Made by a program: the position numbers and the translations under genes. Positions 27,967-56,229 of a DNA stretch of 64,000 nucleotides are shown here, one piece after another. Numbering within the stretch: the first letter of the stretch is position 1; each line of letters begins with the position of its first letter. This DNA comes from an uncultured Thermococci archaeon. Lineage in GTDB: Archaea; Methanobacteriota_B; Thermococci; Methanofastidiosales; B48-G16. The stretch is taken from positions 32,001 to 96,000 of the forward strand of contig CAZQQT010000006.1 in NCBI GenBank assembly GCA_964595645.1. Reading direction: 5' to 3'. The notes under the pieces were generated by a model. The model made no database searches. It saw only the letters and a list, made by a program, of their open reading frames with translations, and was not told the origin of the DNA.

Positions 27967-28305
27967 CGACAGTATAGAACAATAAGATTCATCGAGAATT
28001 CTCATTATTATCTTTTAGTACTTCCCATGAAAATTAGGACCAATCTATTCAGATGAATTACTATAATTTGGTTATCTGGATTTTCGTTTCGGTATCAGTT
28101 ATTTTTTAACTACTTTTGCGGTTTTGATCATGATGGAGTTATAAGTAGAGGGCGGACTTCAGTACACAAAGTCCTAAGCCGATCCTTGCTTTTGGAGCTT
28201 TATGGAGATATTTTTCATCTCATCACTCTTATATACTTAAAGAAGAAATAAGAAAAAAAAAAGAAAAATTATGTACAGGTAATCCCACTTCTCTCCTGAA
28301 TCGCC

Positions 28306-28596
28306 TCACTTGAGCCTTTTCTCAAAAAAGTCGCCGACGAATGTACCAACAATGAAGAATATCGCGAAAAGGATCGCGTTGACGAAGACGCTGACGAACC
28401 CTGTACCGAATGGGAAGAGCCAGCTTGGGAGAGAGTTGCCCGCAAGGTATCCAAGAAGTCCAAAGACGATAGCGAGAATAATGGAGTATAGAATCCCTTT
28501 CTTTAATAGTCCCCACTGTTTCTCTTCGCCCGGCTTCACGTATCCGTAGATCGCCCCAAGGAGAAGTCCTATCCAGAACAACATGTAGTTTTTCAC
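28306..28596 (-). CDS. Small membrane protein
   Basis: Three hydrophobic segments; GGAGGTGA RBS. Confidence 0.75.
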   Translation of the reverse strand: MKNYMLFWIGLLLGAIYGYVKPGEEKQWGLLKKGILYSIILAIVFGLLGYLAGNSLPSWLFPFGTGFVSVFVNAILFAIFFIVGTFVGDFFEKRLK

Positions 28597-29563
28597 CTCC
28601 TATGTTTTTTTTACTAATATACATAATTAAGAACTATATAAATGTTGCTGTACGTTTATTATAATGCCTCTAACGTAGTGGTAAAATGGTGGTAAAATTC
28701 TCTCACCTCCTTTCCCACTTCCTGCTAGGCGGGAAATTTCGCCTCTCGCACCATAGGGATCTCCACGATATCGCCTTCTTTTTCCCGTTTTTTCCTCCAA
28801 AATTTCCCAAAACATACATATTGGGAAATGCAAAAAAGGATCTAGGTCGTCTTCAAGATATGTAACTACGTGCCTATCTCTCTTCACGTCTGACCCCCAA
28901 AATCGTGATAATTACTGCGATTTTCGATCGATCGTTCTTTGTGAGTAGTTTGATACATGAGGATCTGCTGTCTCCTATATCTTGTGAAGGATCATCTCTT
29001 AGAAGATCATGATCGTTCGTGTTCTGATGAACGTGTTGTGGAATCATGAGTGTGGATGGTTCATGACGTACAATCCAAGAAAAGAGTACACAACAATAGG
29101 TATCACAATGAGCGACTGACAATGATTACTAGGGTCTCCATCCGAATTCATACAGATTTCCAAAAATTTCATGATCCCTTCTTTTCTTGTTTATCAAAAA
29201 AGGAATTTGGAGCTCCCATTCGTTAATCTAAGCCGTTCAAGGGGTCAGTTCTCCCCTTTTTTCCGTTTCCATAACATCCCGAAACTGGTTTGATCTGTTT
29301 CATCATATGAATCATATATGAAAAACTTGTTACATCCCTTCTCCGGAGAGTTCCATCGACCCCCTTGTTTTTTTCTCAACGTTCTCTTGTTTTCTACGGT
29401 TTCTCATCGAGATTCCACCCGTTTTGAACGCAGTTTCGTGATTTTTGAAGGTGAATTCATATGAATTTCCGTATTCATATATGAATAAGTAACTATTATG
29501 CCCCCCCTCCCTCTTTAGAAAGGGTGCTGGGAGGAAAATGTGTGGTATGCTATGTAGCTTCCA

Positions 29564-30345
29564 TCACACGTCTATATCAACTGTCACCCCAACCCTCTCT
29601 TTCCCAAGAAATACTGGGGCGACCTCGTGCCATGTGTATTGAGGGAAGACATAGGGGTAGTTCCCCTGACGGATGTATCGATACACATGTTTCACGTACT
29701 GAGTCACGAGCACGTAGGAGCACTTGTCCATCTCCCCCACGAGTTTGGGCGAGATCTTGTTTTGGGATGTTCAGCCTACGAGGGATCGGTGGGAGAGGTC
29801 GAGGTACACGTCCACCTCCGGCAGGATCCTCCCGTCGTCGTGACAGTACATCGCGATGTCACCACAGGAGAGGAGACCGAACGTCTTCCCGTTGAACATG
29901 AAGACTCGCTTCTCGTTCTGTGCGGAGAACCCCCGTTGATCGCCCTTTCCTCGCTCCAGCCAACACTCCCAGATGTGGGTGACGTACCCGTACTCTCCGT
30001 AGTCCCATTTAAGAAGGCGACAATGGAGTCGATCCCGCGGTACGGGTTGTATTGTCGTTCTCCTTCCCTTTTCTCACTGAAAAGATCGATGCCCACGACG
30101 AGCGGCACCTTCTCCTCCAGGTGCGTGTTGAGGAGCGGGAGTACCTCGTTAGAGATGAGATCTTTGGCACTGGAGAACTGCGTGGGCTGCAGGGAGAAAA
30201 AGTTGTGGGAAGTGACGAGCATGTCCGTCTGCGGCGTGATCGCTACATCTAAAAGGTCTACCGCCCGTTCGTAGTCCCACGAGTCACTACAGTACTTCTC
30301 CTGAAAGAAGCGTTTACATTCCGGGATGATGAGTCGTACCTTCAT
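29564..30345 (-). pseudogene. Disrupted gene, nitrilase/carbon-nitrogen hydrolase-like fold
   Basis: Frameshift near 30010; the continuation reads KWDYGEYGYVTHIWE...TFGLLSCGDI...DVYLDLSH..G*TSQ... to TGA at 29564. Confidence 0.6.
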
Positions 30346-30486
30346 CGTTCACCTCACACGATACTACTCCCCGCAATTTTCCACAGGTCCTCGTGGAGCA
30401 ACGCGAGGAGACAGTTGGTACACTCTCGTTCGGTGGGATTCTCTCGAGGACACTCTCTCTTCTCTACCCACCTACATTCCATGCCA

Positions 30487-31347
30487 TCACCCCGGAAACC
30501 CCTTCTCCGTGAACTCGAAGCTCACTTCGTACTGTTTTAACTCGAGACCGGGGAACAGTGATTTGGAGTACTTGAGGTTTTTATCGAAGTCCTCCGCGAC
30601 GATAATCGCCCGAACATCCTGCGTTTCCTCCGCGATATGTTCCTTCACGTACCCCACGTACCGCATGATCTGTCCCATCACCTTGTCTCTCACCATTCCT
30701 GTCTTGATCTCGATCACCACAAGATCGTCGTTCCTATCGACGGCGAGGATATCGATCCTCCCGGCATCAGTAGAGTACTCACTCCCCGTCCTCCCTTCAT
30801 ACGGTTGGAGTCCTTCTTCTAGGAAGTCGAGGTTGTGAAGGATGTACTCGTGGAGATCCCGTTCCAGGCTTATGGACGCTCGGTAGCGTTCTTCTACCGT
30901 TTCCTCATCCTCCTCAATTTCTACAACGTCCTCTACTTCATGATCCTCAACACCCCCTAGTTCATTCAGCGAGTAGTAGTCCTTTTCAACTACAGGGTTG
31001 CCAGCTCTCACATTTTTTAAGAATAACTTCTTTTCTTCATCGGTGAGTAGTTTGTACCTCCCCCGTCCATCCGTGACAAACAGCGGGTTCTTTTTCCACG
31101 GAACGCTGGGGTAGTTTTTCCTCGATTTCATGTTGATGGTGTGGCAGAGAATTTGGAGGTAGATCGTGTTCTCGTTCACCTCATCAGAAGGGTACATCTC
31201 CTTCACTTTTCTCTTGATAGAGCTCGGATGGAGCCAGCGGTGCTCTCCATCGAGCTCCTTGGCTGCCTCCTGACACATTTTCCAGACGTACTTAGAGTAG
31301 TGAGGCATACGATCTCTCTTGTGAGAATACATAAAAACCTTTCCCAT
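30487..31347 (-). CDS. NucS/EndoMS-like PD-(D/E)xK nuclease with N-terminal wHTH-like domain
   Basis: LERDLHE, GRIDILAVD, VVIEIK, GQIMRY; acidic linker. Confidence 0.82.
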   Translation of the reverse strand: MGKVFMYSHKRDRMPHYSKYVWKMCQEAAKELDGEHRWLHPSSIKRKVKEMYPSDEVNENTIYLQILCHTINMKSRKNYPSVPWKKNPLFVTDGRGRYKLLTDEEKKLFLKNVRAGNPVVEKDYYSLNELGGVEDHEVEDVVEIEEDEETVEERYRASISLERDLHEYILHNLDFLEEGLQPYEGRTGSEYSTDAGRIDILAVDRNDDLVVIEIKTGMVRDKVMGQIMRYVGYVKEHIAEETQDVRAIIVAEDFDKNLKYSKSLFPGLELKQYEVSFEFTEKGFPG

Positions 31348-31362
31348 TCTGAATCGTTTCGC

Positions 31363-31884
31363 CTATCTTAGTTGACGGATTTTCTCCCATTGTTCTCTGT
31401 GGTCCATAATTTGTTCAGGTTTCACGCTCATGCCCTTATACAAGTTCCCATTCTTGCAGATCTGTTGGGGCCAGACCGGCACGTTTTTTTCGTCGATTAT
31501 TACCTCTCCTTCGGAGATGTCAGATTCCAATTCCGTGTACAGCATCTTCTTCCAATTCTGGGCTGTGAGTATATAAAAATCAGGACGTTCATTCGGTTTC
31601 TTGTTCTCAAAATCCACAAAGATTAATACCTCGTCTCCCTCATGGACCCCCGTGCAGTTCGGCCACACTCTCCTCTGTTTACTCCTCACTATCGCGGTAA
31701 TGCTCTTGTGTGTCGTTTCGACAGCTATTTTATTCCCTCTCCCTTTTATACTTACACGGAAGTCTCTTTTGCAAAGCTCACTGGCGGCTGCAAACGTCGC
31801 TGCCAACCCCAACATCCTCTTTGGAATGCTCATCGCACTACTCTTTGTTTTGAAATTTTTAAGTTTTTGTTTTCTGAAAATCAA
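31363..31884 (-). CDS. Hypothetical protein, degenerate PD-(D/E)xK-like fold
   Basis: AASELCKRDF...VRSKQ...IFVDF...PDFYIL pattern; catalytic acids not evident. Confidence 0.5.
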   Translation of the reverse strand: MIFRKQKLKNFKTKSSAMSIPKRMLGLAATFAAASELCKRDFRVSIKGRGNKIAVETTHKSITAIVRSKQRRVWPNCTGVHEGDEVLIFVDFENKKPNERPDFYILTAQNWKKMLYTELESDISEGEVIIDEKNVPVWPQQICKNGNLYKGMSVKPEQIMDHREQWEKIRQLR

Positions 31885-31951
31885 TATCGTGACTGTTGCG
31901 TTGAAGATACAGTGTAAAAGTATTTTATAGATTAATCCTTATACTGTATGT

Positions 31952-32614
31952 ATGAACTATGTAGGACGATTAGAGAAGGAGAGCTGCCCTTGCGAATGTC
32001 ACTTCAGAAAGAAAGATCTCCCGATAATAACGATCCCGGCACCAAAAAATCCTGAGATAATCCTCGTCTCACGAGACCCCACTACAGATTTTCTCCCAAT
32101 CTATGCGTACTCTGAGCAGTATGATGCAGAACAACGACGAAAAATGTTGTTCACCGCGGCTATCCCTCATCTCCTGATTGTACAGATAACGAAATTTCTG
32201 AGGGTAGGAAAAGAAAAAGGAGAGAATGAAGAGAGAATCTCTACACTGTACGAGCAAAGAGGAAAGCTCTTCACACTGTACGAGAGTACGTACTGGACAC
32301 ACCTACAGAAATGTCCTACAGTCAGCTGTGCGAAAAATGGGTTCAAAAAGAAGTATGCTAGAATATGTGCAGACAAATGGCTAGAGGAAGAGTTGTCTCA
32401 TGTGGTGGAAGCTCATGACATAAAAGCTCTTATTGCGTTGGGAAACGACGTTCAAGAATGGATAGATAAGTGGAACGGAAACAGAGGGAGTAAGATAATA
32501 AGTTTGCCCCACCCCTCCAATCAAAACAATCGGTACTGGTGTCGTAACGAGAAGTACCAACAGAAGATCAACGAAATGGAAGAGGAAATTGAGGAACTTG
32601 TGGATCTGCTTTGA
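31952..32614 (+). CDS. Uracil-DNA-glycosylase superfamily protein
   Basis: IILVSRDP, YWTHLQKC, IALG, LPHPS. Confidence 0.8.
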   Translation: MNYVGRLEKESCPCECHFRKKDLPIITIPAPKNPEIILVSRDPTTDFLPIYAYSEQYDAEQRRKMLFTAAIPHLLIVQITKFLRVGKEKGENEERISTLYEQRGKLFTLYESTYWTHLQKCPTVSCAKNGFKKKYARICADKWLEEELSHVVEAHDIKALIALGNDVQEWIDKWNGNRGSKIISLPHPSNQNNRYWCRNEKYQQKINEMEEEIEELVDLL

Positions 32615-32883
32615 ATCATTTGGCATTGAGAAAAAGAAAACGTTTACTGATACTAACTTTAAAGAACTATCAACGTTTACTTACTCTCTGATAAAATAAT
32701 TGAAAAATATATGCACCATATATTCTTCTCCTCTCTTACTCCGATCACCTAAAAATAGTCATGACACAGCGAAATATGGAGGAATGTAAAATTAAAAATT
32801 TTTAAAGTATAAACATCTTCTTTTCGAACTTGTTGCTATGAAATAAAAAGAAATAAATGATTTTATAATAAAATAAAAAATTC

Positions 32884-33438
32884 TTAAGGTTTTCCAGAAA
32901 AAATAACAACAAAAACAGCTAAATAAGAGATAAATATCAATAAAATGGCCGAAACTATATTGAAAGAAAGTACAAGAACAAGACCAAAATCAAACCAGAG
33001 GAGAATCATCCCGATATTGATACCTAAAAGTAGCTTGTGTGCACGTATGTTCGTGTCAGGGCCTGGAGTGTATACCTTCTTAAATGAGTTTATAAGATCT
33101 TCTTTGGGCAGATCAACAAAATTTTCGTCTGTATTATCTAAAAGAGTATACAATTCTTTATTTTTCCTTTGGGAGATATGTACGTTCAAAGTTGTGAGGA
33201 TAGAAAATAGAATTGCAAACCCTAAAAAAAGTATTATCAAATTCGATCTTAAATTTCTATTCATTTGTTCTATAAGCCCTGTAATTGTCAAAAGAAAAAT
33301 TGAAGTGATAAATAAAAGAAAATATGTTTTTTCCATGGCGAATTTTGTGTAATTAGGTATTTCATTTCCAATTGTTTTTATATACTCTATTATCGTATTA
33401 AAATTCCCTGTATCTTTTGGTTTCCTTTCTTCGCCCAT
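32884..33438 (-). CDS. Hypothetical membrane protein (about 4 TM)
   Basis: AT-rich ORF with hydrophobic segments and upstream TATA. Confidence 0.7.
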   Translation of the reverse strand: MGEERKPKDTGNFNTIIEYIKTIGNEIPNYTKFAMEKTYFLLFITSIFLLTITGLIEQMNRNLRSNLIILFLGFAILFSILTTLNVHISQRKNKELYTLLDNTDENFVDLPKEDLINSFKKVYTPGPDTNIRAHKLLLGINIGMILLWFDFGLVLVLSFNIVSAILLIFISYLAVFVVIFSGKP

Positions 33439-33506
33439 ACGATAAAGTCAGAATCAATCCTTAAATAAGTTTTTATTATTTTTTCAGAAATTATAAGGCC
33501 ATTCTT

Positions 33507-34150
33507 TTAGGCATGATGTATCTTTTCTTTCTCGAATTTCACTTTCTCTAGGTCACTGTGAAATCTATCTATTTCTTCTTGCATCAACCAATCTCTTTTG
33601 GGGTTTGGCCATTTTTCGAGTCCTTTTTTAGAGTAATAAAGGAACATATTGCTCACGGTAGCAAAAATATTCTGGCATGCTCGATCGTAGTCTTCACAGT
33701 CTGGAGGAGGAAAGGGCAAATCTCCAGATTTATGATATAGTTCCGTAACTTCTTCGTCCATCCTTTGCATTTCGGCGACAAATTTTTCTTCGGTGATCTT
33801 TTCTTGTTCATATTCTTCGAAATGCTGAGTTGCCCGCTCCGCAAAATATATCATCTCATTTAGTACAGGTTCAAGGGCACCTAAAAACTCCTCCTTATTC
33901 CCTTGATATCTCTCAAAAAGTTCTTTGCGATCCTTATAACGGTCATTCCAAAGAATTTCGATCCCTTCTAAAGTCTCATTGCCTCCTATCCCCGAGGGAC
34001 GAATCTCTGTTGGTAAGGATGAATCTATCCAACAACTCCGACAAACCCAATTTGCATTTTGTATATCTTCCATGTCGTGGGCGATAAATAGCCATACTAC
34101 ATGAGCAGGCGTTTCTCCCCACCGTCTTTCTACTCGTTCATTGCGGTAAT
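33507..34150 (-). pseudogene. Probable C-terminal fragment of a larger protein
   Basis: Frame stays open upstream of the ATG (NNYRNERVERRWGETPAHVVWLFIAHDMED) to a stop, with no start signal. Confidence 0.5.
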
Positions 34151-34317
34151 TATTCTAGTAAAATAAAGATGATTTGAAACATCAATAAAGCCAATCTTTT
34201 GATCTTATATCTATTTTTTCGAATTTCGATTTTCATATCTTTATCCCGTATTTGGTTTACAATATCGGTATTGAACTGTTCTTCTTGTATGATTCCAATG
34301 TTTCCTTTTTACATTTT

Positions 34318-35880
34318 TTACCTTTTTTTATCAATGGAACGTCTTATCTCTATTTCATCTTTTCGCTCCTTAAATTCTTTAACTTTTCCCTTTATCCATT
34401 CTTTTGTTCCTTTAAAGGCATCTTCGGCATTAACTTCTTTATCTTCTAACTTAAAATGAATTAAGTTATTCCACTCCTCAGCTTCCGCGATAAGTTTGTC
34501 TATGTGTTCTATTAACCCCCCAACTTGACTTTCTTCTCTTTCCTCGCCTTCACGAATAAAATCATTTAAAAACTTATATTTCTCTTCTAATTCGAATTTA
34601 GTATCCTCATTGCTTATAGAAACATTCAAATCTCTACCAAATTCCATTCTTGAGTAAGTTAACAGCAAAAGATAGTAATAGTAAATGTAATGAATAGCGT
34701 CATGGAAATCTCTTAGATCAGTAAAGTGTTTCCACGCTGTATCTCCCTTCCCTCCATATAAAAACATCAGAGTAACGAATTTAATGTCAAAGCTAACTGG
34801 GGACTCATTGGCATGCCTCGTTATCGAATCCTCTGGTGTTGTGTGCGTCCAAAGTTCTTTGAGATATTTCTGAACATCGATATTTTCATGTTCTCTACAA
34901 AAGAAGAGATACCATCCAACATCAAAAAAAGTTTTGTACAGGAGAGAACTGACATGAAGGTTGTCCACGTCGTTCTCTATCTCTGTCATAATCTTTTCCT
35001 TATTTTCTTTGAACTCTGATACTTGGTGTCTGATCCGCTCTTTGAGATTATCAAAGTTGTTCCCTCTCCAATCTTCAAATTTTTCAGGATGAGTTCTCCG
35101 TCGGTGATCTATATCGATAGCATCACAACTTTTTTCTGTGTGATCGAAGAACTCTTGAAGCATTTTTTTGAAGTTCTCATATAAATCCCTTGAGAAAAAA
35201 TTTTTAAAGAGGATAAATCTAAGGTAAAAGAGTAATTTTCTGCGTCTTTTCATAAAAGATGTAGTTTCTTCCGAACTAAAATAGTGAAATGGCACATTTG
35301 ATAGAGGAAGTTCATTTTCAATCTTTTGTTTCGATCTTAAAGGATCTAGGTGTAATGATAGGCTAAAAATATGTATCTCATCCTTGAAAAGATCGAAATC
35401 ATCGTTATCTACAATTATTTCATTACTGCGAAAAATATTGGTGCAAATAAAATTCTCCATGTATTCTTCACGAAATTTTTTGAGAGGTAGAGGATACTGC
35501 AAGACTCCCGGGAATACCTGTAGTAATCGATATTTCGAGTTATCATTAGTCTGTATAGCCACCTCTAAAAATTGGGAAAAAAAGTTTCCATGAATAGACG
35601 GAGTATCCATTATTTCGCTCAATACATCTTTATTTCCTACAATTTGAAGTGTTTTGAAAATATAATTAGATAGCGTATCAACGATCTCCCTCACTACATT
35701 ATCATTGCCCACTTGAATGGCGTTTTTGAATAGTCTAAATTTTTGTTCAAGTAAATACTTAGAAATTCTATTTTTTTCTTCGGGTAGATAGAAGAGACTT
35801 TTTTTCTCTATCGTATACTTCTCCGGGTTTTGAGCTTTCAATTTTAAGAAATTTTCAAAGATCTCAAATTTCGTCTCCAA
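34318..35880 (-). CDS. Hypothetical protein (520 aa, helical)
   Basis: Long ORF; no motif recognised. Confidence 0.7.
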   Translation of the reverse strand: METKFEIFENFLKLKAQNPEKYTIEKKSLFYLPEEKNRISKYLLEQKFRLFKNAIQVGNDNVVREIVDTLSNYIFKTLQIVGNKDVLSEIMDTPSIHGNFFSQFLEVAIQTNDNSKYRLLQVFPGVLQYPLPLKKFREEYMENFICTNIFRSNEIIVDNDDFDLFKDEIHIFSLSLHLDPLRSKQKIENELPLSNVPFHYFSSEETTSFMKRRRKLLFYLRFILFKNFFSRDLYENFKKMLQEFFDHTEKSCDAIDIDHRRRTHPEKFEDWRGNNFDNLKERIRHQVSEFKENKEKIMTEIENDVDNLHVSSLLYKTFFDVGWYLFFCREHENIDVQKYLKELWTHTTPEDSITRHANESPVSFDIKFVTLMFLYGGKGDTAWKHFTDLRDFHDAIHYIYYYYLLLLTYSRMEFGRDLNVSISNEDTKFELEEKYKFLNDFIREGEEREESQVGGLIEHIDKLIAEAEEWNNLIHFKLEDKEVNAEDAFKGTKEWIKGKVKEFKERKDEIEIRRSIDKKR

Positions 35881-36241
35881 TATCTTTTTAACAACTATAT
35901 CCTCCCCCCTTCATATCGAAATATACATGTAAATAAGGAGATTGAACAAAAAGAGAGAAAATTCATAGAAAAAATTCAACAGTGAACTTTGGCCATGCCT
36001 CTTAGGGTTTATTTCAAAATAGAATCTAGAAAGATTGTAGATGAAACTTCTGGACTTTTCAGCGCTCCACCTTAGTATCTTGAGCCATTAAGCTTTGACC
36101 TTCTCGGGCACATCCTCCCCATAATGGATTATCAGTTTCATCCTGAGATTGATGCTTGTATGCTTGGGGTAGGTAGTGTCTCTTCTATCTTGAGCAAAAG
36201 TACTTTAAACAAAAAATCGTAATAATATATATGGCATTGCT

Positions 36242-36697
36242 ATGGACGAGGCTAAAGTTCAATCCATATTGAAACACTGGTTTGAGAAACGAGGATTTAG
36301 GACGATAGAGAATATGAGGTTATCTCCTGGAAATAATGTCGATTTGGTCGCTCAAAAAGATAACGAGAAATGGATCGTGGAGATAAAAGGCGACTACAAC
36401 AGTAGTACAGCTCAATATAGTGTGAACTTTGATACGGGTATGGGCCAAATTCTAAAAAGTATTTCAAAATTGAATAATAAAGTGAAATATGCCATTTGTA
36501 TACCCTTTAGTAGGACAGAACGTGGCGAGAGACTTTCTTATAGACTCATCCTCAATAAATACTCAAAATCCATTGCATTCAAAACACTCCAAATTCATCT
36601 TATTCTAGTTCGAGACAATGAATCTGTTGAACTAATATACCCAGAAGGAGTCAGTTCGTTTCTGGATACAATTGATCCAGCGATAAAGAGGAGGTAA
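36242..36697 (+). CDS. Small PD-(D/E)xK restriction-endonuclease-like protein
   Basis: E..VQ, VDLVAQK, IVEIKG, GMGQIL. Confidence 0.75.
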   Translation: MDEAKVQSILKHWFEKRGFRTIENMRLSPGNNVDLVAQKDNEKWIVEIKGDYNSSTAQYSVNFDTGMGQILKSISKLNNKVKYAICIPFSRTERGERLSYRLILNKYSKSIAFKTLQIHLILVRDNESVELIYPEGVSSFLDTIDPAIKRR

Positions 36698-36701
36698 GTA
36701 T

Positions 36702-37334
36702 ATGAAAAAGAGTTTAATATTGATTCCGTGTTGCGGTTCTAAAAAGGAGGGTGGTACAGTAGAGTACGACAGGGATATCTCTATCTTCCACTACCTACCA
36801 GAAAGATCGCGAGATCACTTGATGAGACTGAGGAGAACATTGTTCGAGTATTTTTCTCTTCCCAGGGGGAAAGATATAGAGTATCCTGATGAGAATACGG
36901 TACAGTATATGGAAGCTTATAAAAGATACACCGGAACTTACTCCCAGATTTACCGACGAATTTCTTCCTTCGCATGGAAAAAATTAGAAAAAACACCGCA
37001 ACTCGATCTGGTGATAGTTTCCGCATTATATGGGATAGTGAGATTCAACGAACCGATACGAAACTATAACAGAACGATGAAGGACAAGGTACAGAACCAG
37101 ACGCTAAAGACATGGTGGAGGAAACATGGCCTATGTGAGATTGTGAGAGGGTACATTGAGAACAACAGGATCACAGAATTGCATAACGTGCTGTCAAACG
37201 ATTACAACGATGCTCTTCGAGGGTGTTTTGAGAAGGTATTTACAACGTACGTCTACCATGATTTCTCAGAGTATAGAAGTGGAAGTAATGCCCATCGAGG
37301 AAAATGGGTGGACACCTTTGTAAAGAATTTTTAG
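36702..37334 (+). CDS. YaaA/DUF6884-like protein
   Basis: ILIPCCGSKK, AYKRYTG, IVSALYGIV, IRNYN. Confidence 0.75.
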   Translation: MKKSLILIPCCGSKKEGGTVEYDRDISIFHYLPERSRDHLMRLRRTLFEYFSLPRGKDIEYPDENTVQYMEAYKRYTGTYSQIYRRISSFAWKKLEKTPQLDLVIVSALYGIVRFNEPIRNYNRTMKDKVQNQTLKTWWRKHGLCEIVRGYIENNRITELHNVLSNDYNDALRGCFEKVFTTYVYHDFSEYRSGSNAHRGKWVDTFVKNF

Positions 37335-37399
37335 AAAGAAGTAACGAGGATACTCTGATAACAGTAAGTACTTATATGATAAGGAAAAAAGTAAGAGTG

Positions 37400-38095
37400 A
37401 TGAGTAGAAAGATACCCAAAAATATTACACGGGAAGATGTGGTTCACGCTCTACAAGAGATTCAAGAAAAGGGAGTTCCTTCGAGATACGGATATAGAAC
37501 AAACTATGTACTGTTCGAAAATGAAAAGTTCCCGCCGAAGTATGTGATCATGGTCGCTAATAAATACGCAAATGGAAGAGAGTTGGATGCTTCTGAGCTC
37601 TATACTAACGGAGCTCGAAAATACTTAAGAGATCTTGGATTTAAAGTAATAAGAGAGGAAAAAGAAGGAATAAACGATGATGAAACAGCGGAAGAACGCT
37701 ACCAGGCCTCTGTTAGTTTGGAGAGGGATCTTCATGAATTTCTTTTTCGAAATCTCGACTTCCTAGAAGAAGGACTCCAACCGTATGAAGGGAGGACGGG
37801 GAGTGAGTACTCTACTGATGCCGGGAGGATCGATATTCTCGCTGTCGATAGGAACGGCGATCTCGTGGTAATCGAGATCAAGACGGGGACGGTAAAAGAC
37901 AAAGTGATGGGACAAATCATGCGGTACGTGGGGTTCGTGAAGGAGCACATCGCAGAGAAAACGCAGGATGTCCGGGCTATTATCGTCGCGGATGACTTCG
38001 ATGAAAACCTCAAATACTCCAAATTGATGTTTCCTAATCTCGAGTTAAAACGGTACGAAGTGAGCTTCGAGTTCACGGAGAAGAAATTTTTATAG
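37400..38095 (+). CDS. NucS/EndoMS-like nuclease with N-terminal domain resembling the McrA-type head domain
   Basis: IPKNITREDV...FPPKYVI...YLRDLGF followed by a C-terminal domain nearly identical to 30487-30900. Confidence 0.82.
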   Translation: MSRKIPKNITREDVVHALQEIQEKGVPSRYGYRTNYVLFENEKFPPKYVIMVANKYANGRELDASELYTNGARKYLRDLGFKVIREEKEGINDDETAEERYQASVSLERDLHEFLFRNLDFLEEGLQPYEGRTGSEYSTDAGRIDILAVDRNGDLVVIEIKTGTVKDKVMGQIMRYVGFVKEHIAEKTQDVRAIIVADDFDENLKYSKLMFPNLELKRYEVSFEFTEKKFL

Positions 38096-38145
38096 GTGAG
38101 TAGATGGTCTTTAAAAGATCAGATAAGTTATCAAGGTAGGAGGAG

Positions 38146-38835
38146 ATGTTAGATTCGTTAGAGAGAGTACATCAGAAAGTTAGGAACAACAAAAAAGAGG
38201 AGAAATCCTTTTGTGCGGGGTACCCTTTGGCGGACAACTATGATGGGCCTGTTTTCATTGAACATGCAGGCAAGTCTGCCCCAAAGGTAATAATTGTATC
38301 TGAAAGTCCGGCTGGATTTGAGAGCATAGAATATGATTTTTCAAAGATAGATAGATGGAAAGAGAAAGTAATGGATGAGATCAGGAACTTCACGAGGTGG
38401 GAGACGATAGGGCAGTTGAACACATTGGCAAAATTTTTGGCAGCGTTAACGGCGAATAACATGTCCGACCCCGAGAATCCAATTACCGTTAACCCAATAT
38501 ACTGGACCCATGCAGTGAAATGTTTTATCCAAAGAGATGAACCGTTACACAAAGCAAAAAGACGATTGGGCAAAAGATTTGATAAGGCTTGTAGGTTTTG
38601 TGCGGGATATTTGTAAGAAGAGATCAAAACCATCAATCCCAAAGTTGTTGTTTTAGTGGGTAGCAAAGCTTTCGATGCTGTGTTTCCGAGAAGGAAAAGA
38701 GATATAATTGGAAAGTCTATAAAGTTCCTCGAAGCAGAATTCATTTATACGTACCATCCAAACGCAAGAATAAAAAGGAACTACAAGAAAAAGGCGTTCG
38801 TTCATGCCAGAAAAAGAATAAAAAGCTATTTGTAA
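38146..38835 (+). pseudogene. UDG-superfamily gene with one internal TAA
   Basis: IIVSESP, YWTHAVKC, then YL*EEIKTINPKVVVLVG...TYHPNA in the same frame to 38835. Confidence 0.8.
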
Positions 38836-41755: not shown

Positions 41756-42325
41756 ATGAAAAAACCGATCCTCAAGGAAGACGTGCGGATCCTCCGACCC
41801 TCAGAGTACGATCAGCTCCGGGACGCGATCCCCAAAATGCACCACCAGATCTTTCTCGATACCCTGCTCTACAGTGGGATGCGGTACATCGAAGTGCAGC
41901 GGTTCCAGGACCATCCAGAGTGGTACGAGAAAGAGACCAGGACGATCCACATCCCCAAGGAAGGAGGGAAAAAGAAAAAGCGGACCATGAAGGATCGGTA
42001 CGTGCACCTCAACCAATCGGGATCGAATACCGTCTCCCTTTTCTTTAAACTGGACCAGGATCTCCCAGCACGGGCCACGTGGTACCAGGATCTCCAACGG
42101 TGGGGCGAGTATACCCGGATGGATACGAATGGGCTCTGTGCGAAAATGACCAGGAAAACGTGGGAATCGTGGCTCCTCACAGCCTACCCCAAGGCCACCA
42201 TCCAGGTCTGCATGTCCATGGGACATACCAAGCTTACCGCGATGGAACACTACCTGAATTTACCGTTTACTGACAGCGAACGTAAGGAGATCATCGAGAG
42301 AGTTGCAGGATGGGGAGGACTGTAA
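41756..42325 (+). CDS. Minimal tyrosine recombinase (catalytic domain only)
   Basis: YSGMRYIE, KMTRKTW, MGHT, HY (R..K..R..H..Y). Confidence 0.8.
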   Translation: MKKPILKEDVRILRPSEYDQLRDAIPKMHHQIFLDTLLYSGMRYIEVQRFQDHPEWYEKETRTIHIPKEGGKKKKRTMKDRYVHLNQSGSNTVSLFFKLDQDLPARATWYQDLQRWGEYTRMDTNGLCAKMTRKTWESWLLTAYPKATIQVCMSMGHTKLTAMEHYLNLPFTDSERKEIIERVAGWGGL

Positions 42326-54860: not shown

Positions 54861-56093
54861 TCACGTAGGTTCTTCCTCTTTTTTTCGTTTCTCCACCAGC
54901 TCTCGGAACTCCCGATGGAGTGAGGGATACTTCTGGAGGATCGTCATGAGATCCATGAGTTTATCCAGGTTTTTCAGCTCCTCCGGGTCCGCCCTGGCGA
55001 TCAGGGGGATGGCCCTCATGAGCTTCTCGGCACCCCGATCCATCCTCGCCCGCTCCTCCTCGCTGAGCACCGTTCCACACCGGCTACAGTACCGCTCCGT
55101 GGGACCGTTCACGTACCCGCACCGAGGACACTTTGTGATGTCACTTTTTTCCTCTTCCTCCTTTTTCAAGCCGTACATGCCAAGGACCCTGTTGTCGATA
55201 TCGCGACCACTAAGGTGGACGTAGGTGGCGGTCATGTCGCTTCCCTGGACCCACCCCATGTAGGCACACAGCTCGGGCTCAGTGAGATGTTTGAGGAGAT
55301 CCCGAACCCTGGAGTGACGGAAGAGGTGAGGATGGACATCTTTGTCAATCCCCGCTTTCTTCGCGATTTTTCTGATTCGCTGCCGGAAGGAGTGGTAGGT
55401 GAGGGGCCGGTGGTCGTCCACGAGGGTCACCCAGAGGGGAGCGTCCCGCTCATCTCTCCGGGGATGGACATCCAACCACTTCGCGAGAATCGACGTGGAG
55501 GTCACGAGGCGGACGGGACGCTCTCCTGTTTTCCCCATCACTTTGATGACCGCTCCGTAGTCATCGAAGGACACATTTTTGATTTTGAGGTGACCGAGTT
55601 CTCCAATTCGCAGTCCCCCCTCGTAGAGTACCGCGATGATCGCCTTATCTCTGATGTACGGGGCAGCCTCGATCATCTTCGTGATGTCCTCCTTCGTGAG
55701 GAGATCGTCCGGTGACTTCCGCCGCGTCTTCTTCACCGTGGTCTTCACGTCTTTCGTCAGCTCTTCTTTCTCTAAGTAGCGGAACAGCCGTTTCAACACG
55801 ACCTTGTAATCTGCTTTGGTCCATTCAGAGTAGTCCGACCGTTCCAACTCTGCGAGAAAAGAGATCACGTCCTGCTCATCCCACTCGGTGAAGGGTTTCT
55901 CCTCTGTCCGTTCTACCATCATCTTCAAATGTCCCGCATATTTGGAGATCCGTGCCTTCGATAGTCCCTCCGCAGTGAGTTTCTCGAGAAAGTTCTCCAC
56001 GATCTCTACATTCTCTTCGTTGTCGAACGCTTCAATGGCACCCTTGTAGAGCTCAATTCTGCGGTCGTAATTGTAGAGGTTATTTTCTTTCAT
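54861..56093 (-). CDS. Tyrosine integrase with C-terminal Zn ribbon
   Basis: GLRIGE, GKTG, HPHLFRHS, GW...TYVHL; CPRC...CSRC. Confidence 0.92.
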   Translation of the reverse strand: MKENNLYNYDRRIELYKGAIEAFDNEENVEIVENFLEKLTAEGLSKARISKYAGHLKMMVERTEEKPFTEWDEQDVISFLAELERSDYSEWTKADYKVVLKRLFRYLEKEELTKDVKTTVKKTRRKSPDDLLTKEDITKMIEAAPYIRDKAIIAVLYEGGLRIGELGHLKIKNVSFDDYGAVIKVMGKTGERPVRLVTSTSILAKWLDVHPRRDERDAPLWVTLVDDHRPLTYHSFRQRIRKIAKKAGIDKDVHPHLFRHSRVRDLLKHLTEPELCAYMGWVQGSDMTATYVHLSGRDIDNRVLGMYGLKKEEEEKSDITKCPRCGYVNGPTERYCSRCGTVLSEEERARMDRGAEKLMRAIPLIARADPEELKNLDKLMDLMTILQKYPSLHREFRELVEKRKKEEEPT

Positions 56094-56145: not shown

Positions 56146-56155
56146 AAGAAAAGAG

Positions 56156-56229
56156 CGCCGTCAGCCGGATTTGAACCGGCGGCCGCCTGGTTAACAGCCA
56201 GGTGCTCTACCGAACTAAGCTATGACGGC
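56156..56229 (-). tRNA. tRNA-Asn(GTT), integration target
   Basis: GCCGTCA...CCTGG-CTGTTAA-CCAGG...GTTCAAATC...TGACGGCG. Confidence 0.95.

Follow-up and report, generated by a model that had tools for sequence, protein, structure and literature searches.

Do two neighboring gene sets that look alike on one archaeal genomic island make up a single defense system present twice, or did separate DNA-targeting genes come to lie side by side there? The question is raised by a window of 64,000 nt, the whole stretch of DNA analyzed (contig 6, positions 32001-96000), from the 1.97-Mb, 99.96% complete genome of an uncultured Thermococci archaeon of the order Methanofastidiosales. Three genes lie between positions 30487 and 32614 of the window and four between 36242 and 38835, encoding two fusions of a NucS-like nuclease domain, two proteins related to uracil-DNA glycosylases (UDGs; UDG-L on the left and UDG-R on the right), two small proteins (p173 and nuc151) and one YaaA-like protein. 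An earlier note on this sequence had taken them for a modified-base defense system, and all seven were confirmed as open reading frames (ORFs). The analysis favors, at slightly better than an even chance, a different reading, in which the stretch is a hotspot of separate DNA-targeting modules on an integrated element and not one system.

The two nucleases were compared at the protein and DNA levels. The left nuclease (30487-31347, minus strand) joins a DUF7669 winged-helix N-domain (Pfam E 1e-8) to a NucS_C domain (E 6e-12). The right nuclease (37400-38095, plus strand) joins a ScoMcrA_N head (PF26345 by precomputed Pfam, a family named ScoMcrA_N by the atlas) to NucS_C (E 5e-13); an alternative start at 37304 would overlap the YaaA-like gene. 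The paralogous nuclease domains are 86% identical over 138 amino acids, and the N-domains are unrelated. At the DNA level the two nuclease domains form an inverted repeat of 408 nt (left arm 30502-30909, right arm 37676-38083; 87% complementary), with 86.5% identity and an 83-nt perfect run, and mismatches between the arms number 9, 11 and 35 at the first, second and third codon positions. This bias, together with the perfect run, indicates that the copies have recombined with each other and that both are under purifying selection, as far as the sequences can tell. The claim that the system is present twice therefore stood for the nuclease domain and fell for the rest, the N-domains and small proteins being unrelated between the sides and the UDGs only remotely alike. 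A segmental duplication of the whole module was considered and rejected, because the two sides do not match in gene order or orientation and resemble each other in the nuclease domain alone.

The left nuclease keeps the motifs GRIDILAVD, VVIEIK and GQIMRY, and the catalytic residues D177, E191, K193, Q204 and Y208 (D, ExK and QxxxY) are invariant in a family alignment of 21 sequences, in which at least three head types are found on one conserved nuclease. The alignment supports the view that both nucleases are intact PD-(D/E)xK enzymes with interchangeable heads, and the fusions of NucS to variable N-domains described earlier were borne out (DUF7669 versus ScoMcrA_N, with the PD-(D/E)xK motifs intact). 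A Foldseek comparison of the N-domains had also been proposed; the AlphaFold2 (AF2) model of the DUF7669 domain (pLDDT 81.5), when compared with known structures, gave winged-helix matches, with Z 7-8.6 to the gyrase winged-helix domain, Fur, histone H5 and the DpnI winged helix (Z 7.0) among many others. In another genome (G035), an AAA_5 McrB-like protein has an N-terminus that shares 40% identity with the right head. Either head could plausibly bind DNA; neither is a proven reader of modified bases. The label "reader" was not supported, since DUF7669 is a generic winged helix and the ScoMcrA head is a small, flexibly attached domain of unknown function, the readers of ScoMcrA being its SBD and SRA domains (PMC6224610).

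Both nucleases match PDC-S02, an uncharacterized single-gene candidate in PADLOC (left, E 1e-27; right, E 5e-29), over model positions 162-306 of 308 only, that is, the nuclease half. The match covers the C-terminal 140 residues of the nucleases, and the heads here are DUF7669 and ScoMcrA_N. Public records label this family as "endonuclease NucS domain-containing protein" or DUF91, and no published activity of a PDC-S02 member was found in the literature searched. The PADLOC check suggested earlier thus returned a candidate family, and scans of all ORFs with Pfam, PADLOC and NCBIfam gave no named defense system. The NucS structures PDB 2vld and 5gke were matched at E 6e-8 and 1e-4, and the same RecB-type domain with D, ExK and QxxxY is found in NucS/EndoMS. 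In contrast to that enzyme, the island nucleases lack the NucS N-terminal domain, have no visible C-terminal PCNA-binding motif and lie on a mobile element; the full-length NCBIfam NucS equivalog (NF003270) gave 65 and 68 bits versus a cut-off of 216, with matches in the C-terminal half only.

The second shared component is the pair of UDG-fold genes. UDG-L (31952-32614, plus strand), divergent from p173, encodes an iron-sulfur (Fe-S) UDG-fold glycosylase-like protein that scores 23.5 bits against PF03167 (cut-off 24.3). It is about 15% identical to solved UDGs, and a sequence search against the PDB found nothing. Its AF2 model (pLDDT 92.9) reached family 4 UDGs in Foldseek (E 4.5e-4) and was superimposed on the family 4 UDG of T. 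thermophilus (1ui1) at VIA Z 12.4 (169 residues aligned, root-mean-square deviation 3.6), on the S. tokodaii UDG (4zby) at Z 12.2 and on UdgX at Z 12.0. The UDG-L family comprised 104 cluster representatives in an exhaustive profile search; in 47 full-length sequences C12, C16, C121 and C139 are invariant, as is S40 of the (I/V)SRDPT motif, and D42, P43, H187 and S189 (the last two in HPS) are at least 90% conserved. The four cysteines are predicted to bind a 4Fe-4S cluster. Family 4 UDGs have the consensus GE(A/G)PG at motif A and HP(S/A) at motif B. Motif A departs from it in both proteins, reading (I/V)SRDPT in UDG-L and SESPAG in UDG-R; at motif B, UDG-L keeps HPS and UDG-R has HPN.

UDG-R (38146-38835, plus strand) is one frame split by an in-frame TAA (38614-38616, codon 157) into ORFs of 156 and 59 codons. 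Only the read-through, with X at the stop, reaches PF03167 (E 3e-11), and a genome search with the UDG model reported "1 TAA" within this match. The codon marks either a pseudogene or a sequencing error; as for recoding, nothing suggests that TAA is read as sense in the host genome. The assignment of both genes to the UDG superfamily hence held by fold for the left gene (Z 12.4) and by PF03167 for the right one only when read through the TAA. The two are remotely alike (hhalign probability 72%, 27% identity), and a canonical UDG is already encoded on contig 10 of the host genome (132 bits). None of the other 33 genomes in the order has a UDG-L gene, and UDG-R had no close relative in 400 Halobacteriota genomes. 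A viral origin of the UDG-L and YaaA-like families was dropped after pattern scans of IMG/VR found nothing.

The small proteins differ more than the pairing of the two sides had implied. The p173 gene (31363-31884, minus strand; probable start 31833) precedes the left nuclease on this strand by 15 nt. Its product had no match in Pfam, PADLOC or NCBIfam and no sequence similarity to nuc151; the atlas leads were NOV_C, PDDEXK_5 and DpnI. Homologues with 40% identity from two Halobacteriota genomes carry TDILIE...QVK and weak PDDEXK_5 matches, and p173 itself lacks the motif Asp through a three-residue deletion and has Ser for Lys. It is thus probably a degenerate PD-(D/E)xK fold and looks inactive. 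The nuc151 gene (36242-36697, plus strand) is the first of the right-hand run and matches Mrr_cat (E 1e-4, 22.8 bits versus a cut-off of 21). That both small proteins are PD-(D/E)xK nucleases was accordingly retained for nuc151, at a marginal score, and abandoned for p173, which has lost the motif.

The YaaA-like gene (36702-37334, plus strand) had been named correctly, with PF03883 matched at E 4e-11 and 43.4 bits (cut-off 29.6) and the motifs PCxxxK and SALYG present. Weak matches were obtained to DUF6884, PDC-M57A and DpdC (E 0.009). C10, K14 and S107-G111 are invariant in the family alignment, and CxxxK and (L/V)SAxxG are motifs described for DUF6884 (PMC11701544). Of the other 132 genomes in the phylum, one has the gene. 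A likeness of its PCxxxK motif to an ArcS domain at the window start had been proposed; a DUF5591 domain does lie at 1-339 on the minus strand, running past the left edge, and the resemblance comes down to a 17-column hhalign match. In another archaeal genome (G298; locus L184, contig C58, 100-947), a nuc151 homologue with 61% identity immediately precedes a truncated YaaA-like gene, next to genes for an amino-acid kinase and an Fe-S oxidoreductase; the pair is found there with neither a NucS fusion nor a glycosylase. A YaaA-like gene with one in-frame TAG, either a pseudogene or a pyrrolysine codon, was seen in a Halobacteriota genome (L181, G280:C44, 3130-3771).

Whether the genes belong together was judged by their neighborhoods elsewhere. 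For the nuclease family, 80 loci from species genomes were searched within 6 kb, using the window proteins as queries along with UDG-L and YaaA-like family profiles; for UDG-L, 80 metagenome loci totaling 464 kb were used. A relative of the UDG-like, nuc151 or p173 genes was present in 0 of the 80 nuclease loci. A NucS_C gene was present in 2 of the 80 UDG-L loci, 4.3 and 6.3 kb away and adjacent in neither. The earlier note had proposed one conserved four-gene system and had named absence of co-occurrence elsewhere as evidence against it; by that measure these counts do not support such a system. Only 2 of the 80 nuclease loci had a DUF6884-type gene. The neighbors of the nucleases were varied, a Pfam tally of 148 immediate neighbors in 78 loci giving Mrr_cat 3 times, AAA_5 and NA-iREase1 twice each, and many housekeeping families. 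Those of UDG-L were mixed as well, with RNase III, UvrD-like helicases, Eco57I/MmeI methylases, NERD and HEPN, and also ribosomal and metabolic genes; the largest cluster of UDG-L neighbors covered 5 loci. Homologues of p173 lay in unrelated contexts. The nuclease family was also found on 31 plasmids. One plasmid copy adjoins an Abi gene and insertion sequence elements, and the hypothetical gene after a plasmid NucS-domain gene was neither YaaA-like nor UDG-like.

In the reading preferred here, the two stand-alone nucleases would use the NucS_C/RecB-type domain as effector, and the DUF7669 or ScoMcrA_N head would most likely set which DNA is bound. With intact nucleases on a mobile element and no methyltransferase found, they most likely act in type IV-like, methyltransferase-less restriction of foreign DNA, their nuclease domains homogenized by recombination while both genes stayed under purifying selection. 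Type IV enzymes (ScoMcrA, McrBC, Mrr and DpnI-type) likewise combine a nuclease with a swappable DNA-binding head, and ScoMcrA and McrB-family proteins also carry the ScoMcrA_N head; a Pfam scan of island ORFs between 27 and 52 kb turned up no methyltransferase. The two Fe-S UDG-fold genes would be unrelated by descent and additional to the housekeeping UDG, each most likely acting, or having acted, alone in the excision of an unusual pyrimidine, by analogy with Brig enzymes. UDG-L looks active (SRDPT, HPS and four cysteines), and UDG-R is presumably dead. The small Mrr-like nuclease and the YaaA/DpdC-family protein may form a coupled pair, adjacent also in one other archaeon. A role in defense, the substrates and the independent action of these genes are what we infer from the features described above.

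Comparison with characterized enzymes sets limits to each of these assignments. UDG-L shares the fold, the four cysteines and HPS with family 4 UDGs and UdgX, and differs in having SRDPT in place of GE(A/G)PG. UDG-fold defense glycosylases exist, namely Brig1, Brig2 and Brig3 (PMC11078745; 10.1101/2025.10.29.685425; 10.64898/2026.02.25.707755); the likeness to them consists of the shared fold and of an extra copy on a mobile element (PMC11078745; 10.1101/2025.10.29.685425), and the neighborhoods of UDG-L are only partly defense-like. The island YaaA-like protein shares PF03883 and CxxxK/SAxxG with YaaA/DUF328-DpdC and DUF6884 (YfjM), and its partner is a small Mrr-like nuclease. As for the Dpd system, no DpdA/TGT-like or DpdB gene was found in the module, PF01702 being matched only at C5:96699 and C6:99299, the latter 3.3 kb past the right end of the window. 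With the contig 5 match belonging to the tRNA enzyme, the one on contig 6 is a second TGT-family gene, short at 341 aa (C6:99299-100243).

All seven genes belong to the variable cargo of an integrated element bounded near 56.2 kb by tRNA-Asn (56155-56229), as read from the tRNA gene, an integrase-family match, an HNH gene and patches of differing GC content. The modules sit in a stretch running from about 28 kb up to this tRNA, in which base composition is patchy and lower-GC stretches (0.30-0.37) flank the modules on either side. The integrase-family match comes from a 189-aa ORF (41756-42325) and is weak, below the Pfam cut-off; a 410-aa ORF (54861-56093) lies beside the tRNA. The island further carries an HNH-HhH gene, pentapeptide-repeat genes and ion-channel genes. 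At its left side, 28000-30400 holds only short or overlapping ORFs with no convincing gene and no family match, and resembles degraded sequence. An HsdR remnant had been reported next to the modules; it was not found in the window with the TIGR00348 model, which matches contig 7 only, and 28.0-30.4 kb is without a clear gene. Between the modules (32884-35880) lie three low-GC genes (30-40% GC; 184, 188 and 520 aa), and the products p184, p188 and p520 had no match in Pfam, PADLOC or NCBIfam. For the small membrane protein encoded after UDG-L (32884-33438), a homologue (E 6e-47; weak 8xMP match) follows a UDG-L homologue directly on one metagenome contig (L086, 917-1546). The host phylum is small, with 133 species genomes.

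Several observations weigh against separate modules and speak for a joint pathway. Each UDG-fold gene has a NucS_C fusion no more than 0.7 kb away, a double adjacency whose chance occurrence in a 28-kb island is roughly a few per cent. The right-hand run is tight, co-oriented and operon-like, with gaps of 4-65 nt. On a Hadarchaeota contig (L005, 4939-6741), a DUF6884 gene (E 7e-41) and the best full-length ScoMcrA_N-NucS_C homologue are divergently oriented. In an uncultured archaeon (L006, 963-3730), a DUF7669-NucS_C gene is followed on one strand by a 436-aa DUF2400/endonuclease I-like ORF and then by a DUF6884-like gene. At a third locus (L185, G035:C117, 2-3429), a YaaA-like gene is divergent from a 903-aa AAA_5 McrB-like protein with a ScoMcrA_N-like head, the contig ending inside. 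This recurrence of YaaA/DUF6884 genes beside related nucleases or a protein with the same head suggests that some of the genes may cooperate; the ORFs flanking DUF6884 or NucS genes at L005, L006 and L007 did not significantly resemble one another or any solved glycosylase. The nearest relatives, at 50-74% identity, are on short contigs and stood outside the neighborhood counts, and the head domains are unproven as readers of modified DNA.

The alternative that draws most on these points is a cooperative restriction coupled to base excision. Here the YaaA/DpdC-like protein would flip and alter or mark an unusual base of invading DNA, the glycosylase would excise it and the NucS_C nuclease, perhaps with nuc151, would cut, the parts being interchangeable between lineages. 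It has precedent, because DpdC, itself of the PF03883 family, converts preQ0 to ADG within DNA (PMC5699537, PMC10164549) and a base-modifying partner, BapA, assists Brig3 (10.64898/2026.02.25.707755). However, none of the 80 nuclease loci had a UDG-L-family gene nearby, nor did any of the 80 UDG-L loci adjoin a NucS_C gene, and DUF6884-type genes accompany the nuclease in no more than the two loci counted above. Moreover, the left module lacks a YaaA-like gene and its p173 looks inactive, UDG-R is broken, and the nuc151/YaaA-like pair stands alone in G298. Such cooperation is regarded as unlikely, though the likeliest of the rivals. Another form of the idea is a modular immunity, carried by archaeal mobile elements, that excises and then cuts: a DpdC-like YaaA/DUF6884 enzyme would work with a glycosylase of any fold, a NucS_C nuclease aimed by its head would then cleave, and the window would hold two differently composed, partly decayed versions. 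We consider this form distinctly unlikely.

DNA repair or damage tolerance on behalf of the element or its host, in place of defense, would explain the same enzymes differently: the UDGs would remove deaminated bases, YaaA/DUF6884-type proteins would bind damaged or abasic DNA and NucS-type nucleases would incise lesions or mismatches. Canonical NucS/EndoMS is a repair nuclease, YfjM (DUF6884) turned up among proteins that interact with abasic and RNA-base lesions and YaaA has a role in peroxide stress (PMC11701544), and the neighbors of UDG-L include housekeeping genes. Two loci also count against a defense role of separate modules. In a Methanogaster metagenome-assembled genome, an HTH-NucS_C gene lies beside endonuclease IV- and endonuclease III-like ORFs, as judged by sequence reading only, and on the Cupriavidus plasmid NZ_CP151112.1 a family member (L203, 4917-5621) lies between imuA-imuB-dnaE2 and ligD/ku. 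On the other hand, the mismatch-binding NucS N-domain is absent and the equivalog scores are one third of the cut-off, the genes are sporadic in the order (UDG-L) and in the phylum (YaaA-like), they lie on a mobile element in a host that already has a canonical UDG, and the nucleases match a defense candidate in PADLOC. Repair is therefore held to be improbable. Least of all do we expect decaying cargo without current function, its adjacency a recombination accident: the nonsense codon in UDG-R, the motif residues lost from p173, the lack of a convincing gene at 28.0-30.4 kb and the weakly matched integrase-like ORF at 41756 would fit it, but conserved motifs persist in the two nucleases, UDG-L, nuc151 and the YaaA-like gene, all of them intact, and most differences between the nuclease copies fall at third codon positions, which makes this very improbable.

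The reading as a hotspot of separate modules bears on a poorly charted field, that of archaeal defense genes, especially those of uncultured methanogen relatives. The nuclease family with exchangeable heads is uncharacterized and already a PADLOC candidate. The locus also carries a caution, as two look-alike neighboring gene sets on one island do not amount to a system, and the comparative data do not hold them together. The most useful leads are the clade of SRDPT UDGs and the pair of small nuclease and YaaA-like protein. The former, an Fe-S UDG-fold clade of about 100 sequence clusters, might serve in repair or in Brig-like defense. If cooperation were true after all, it would extend the finding that base-modifying enzymes assist defense glycosylases.

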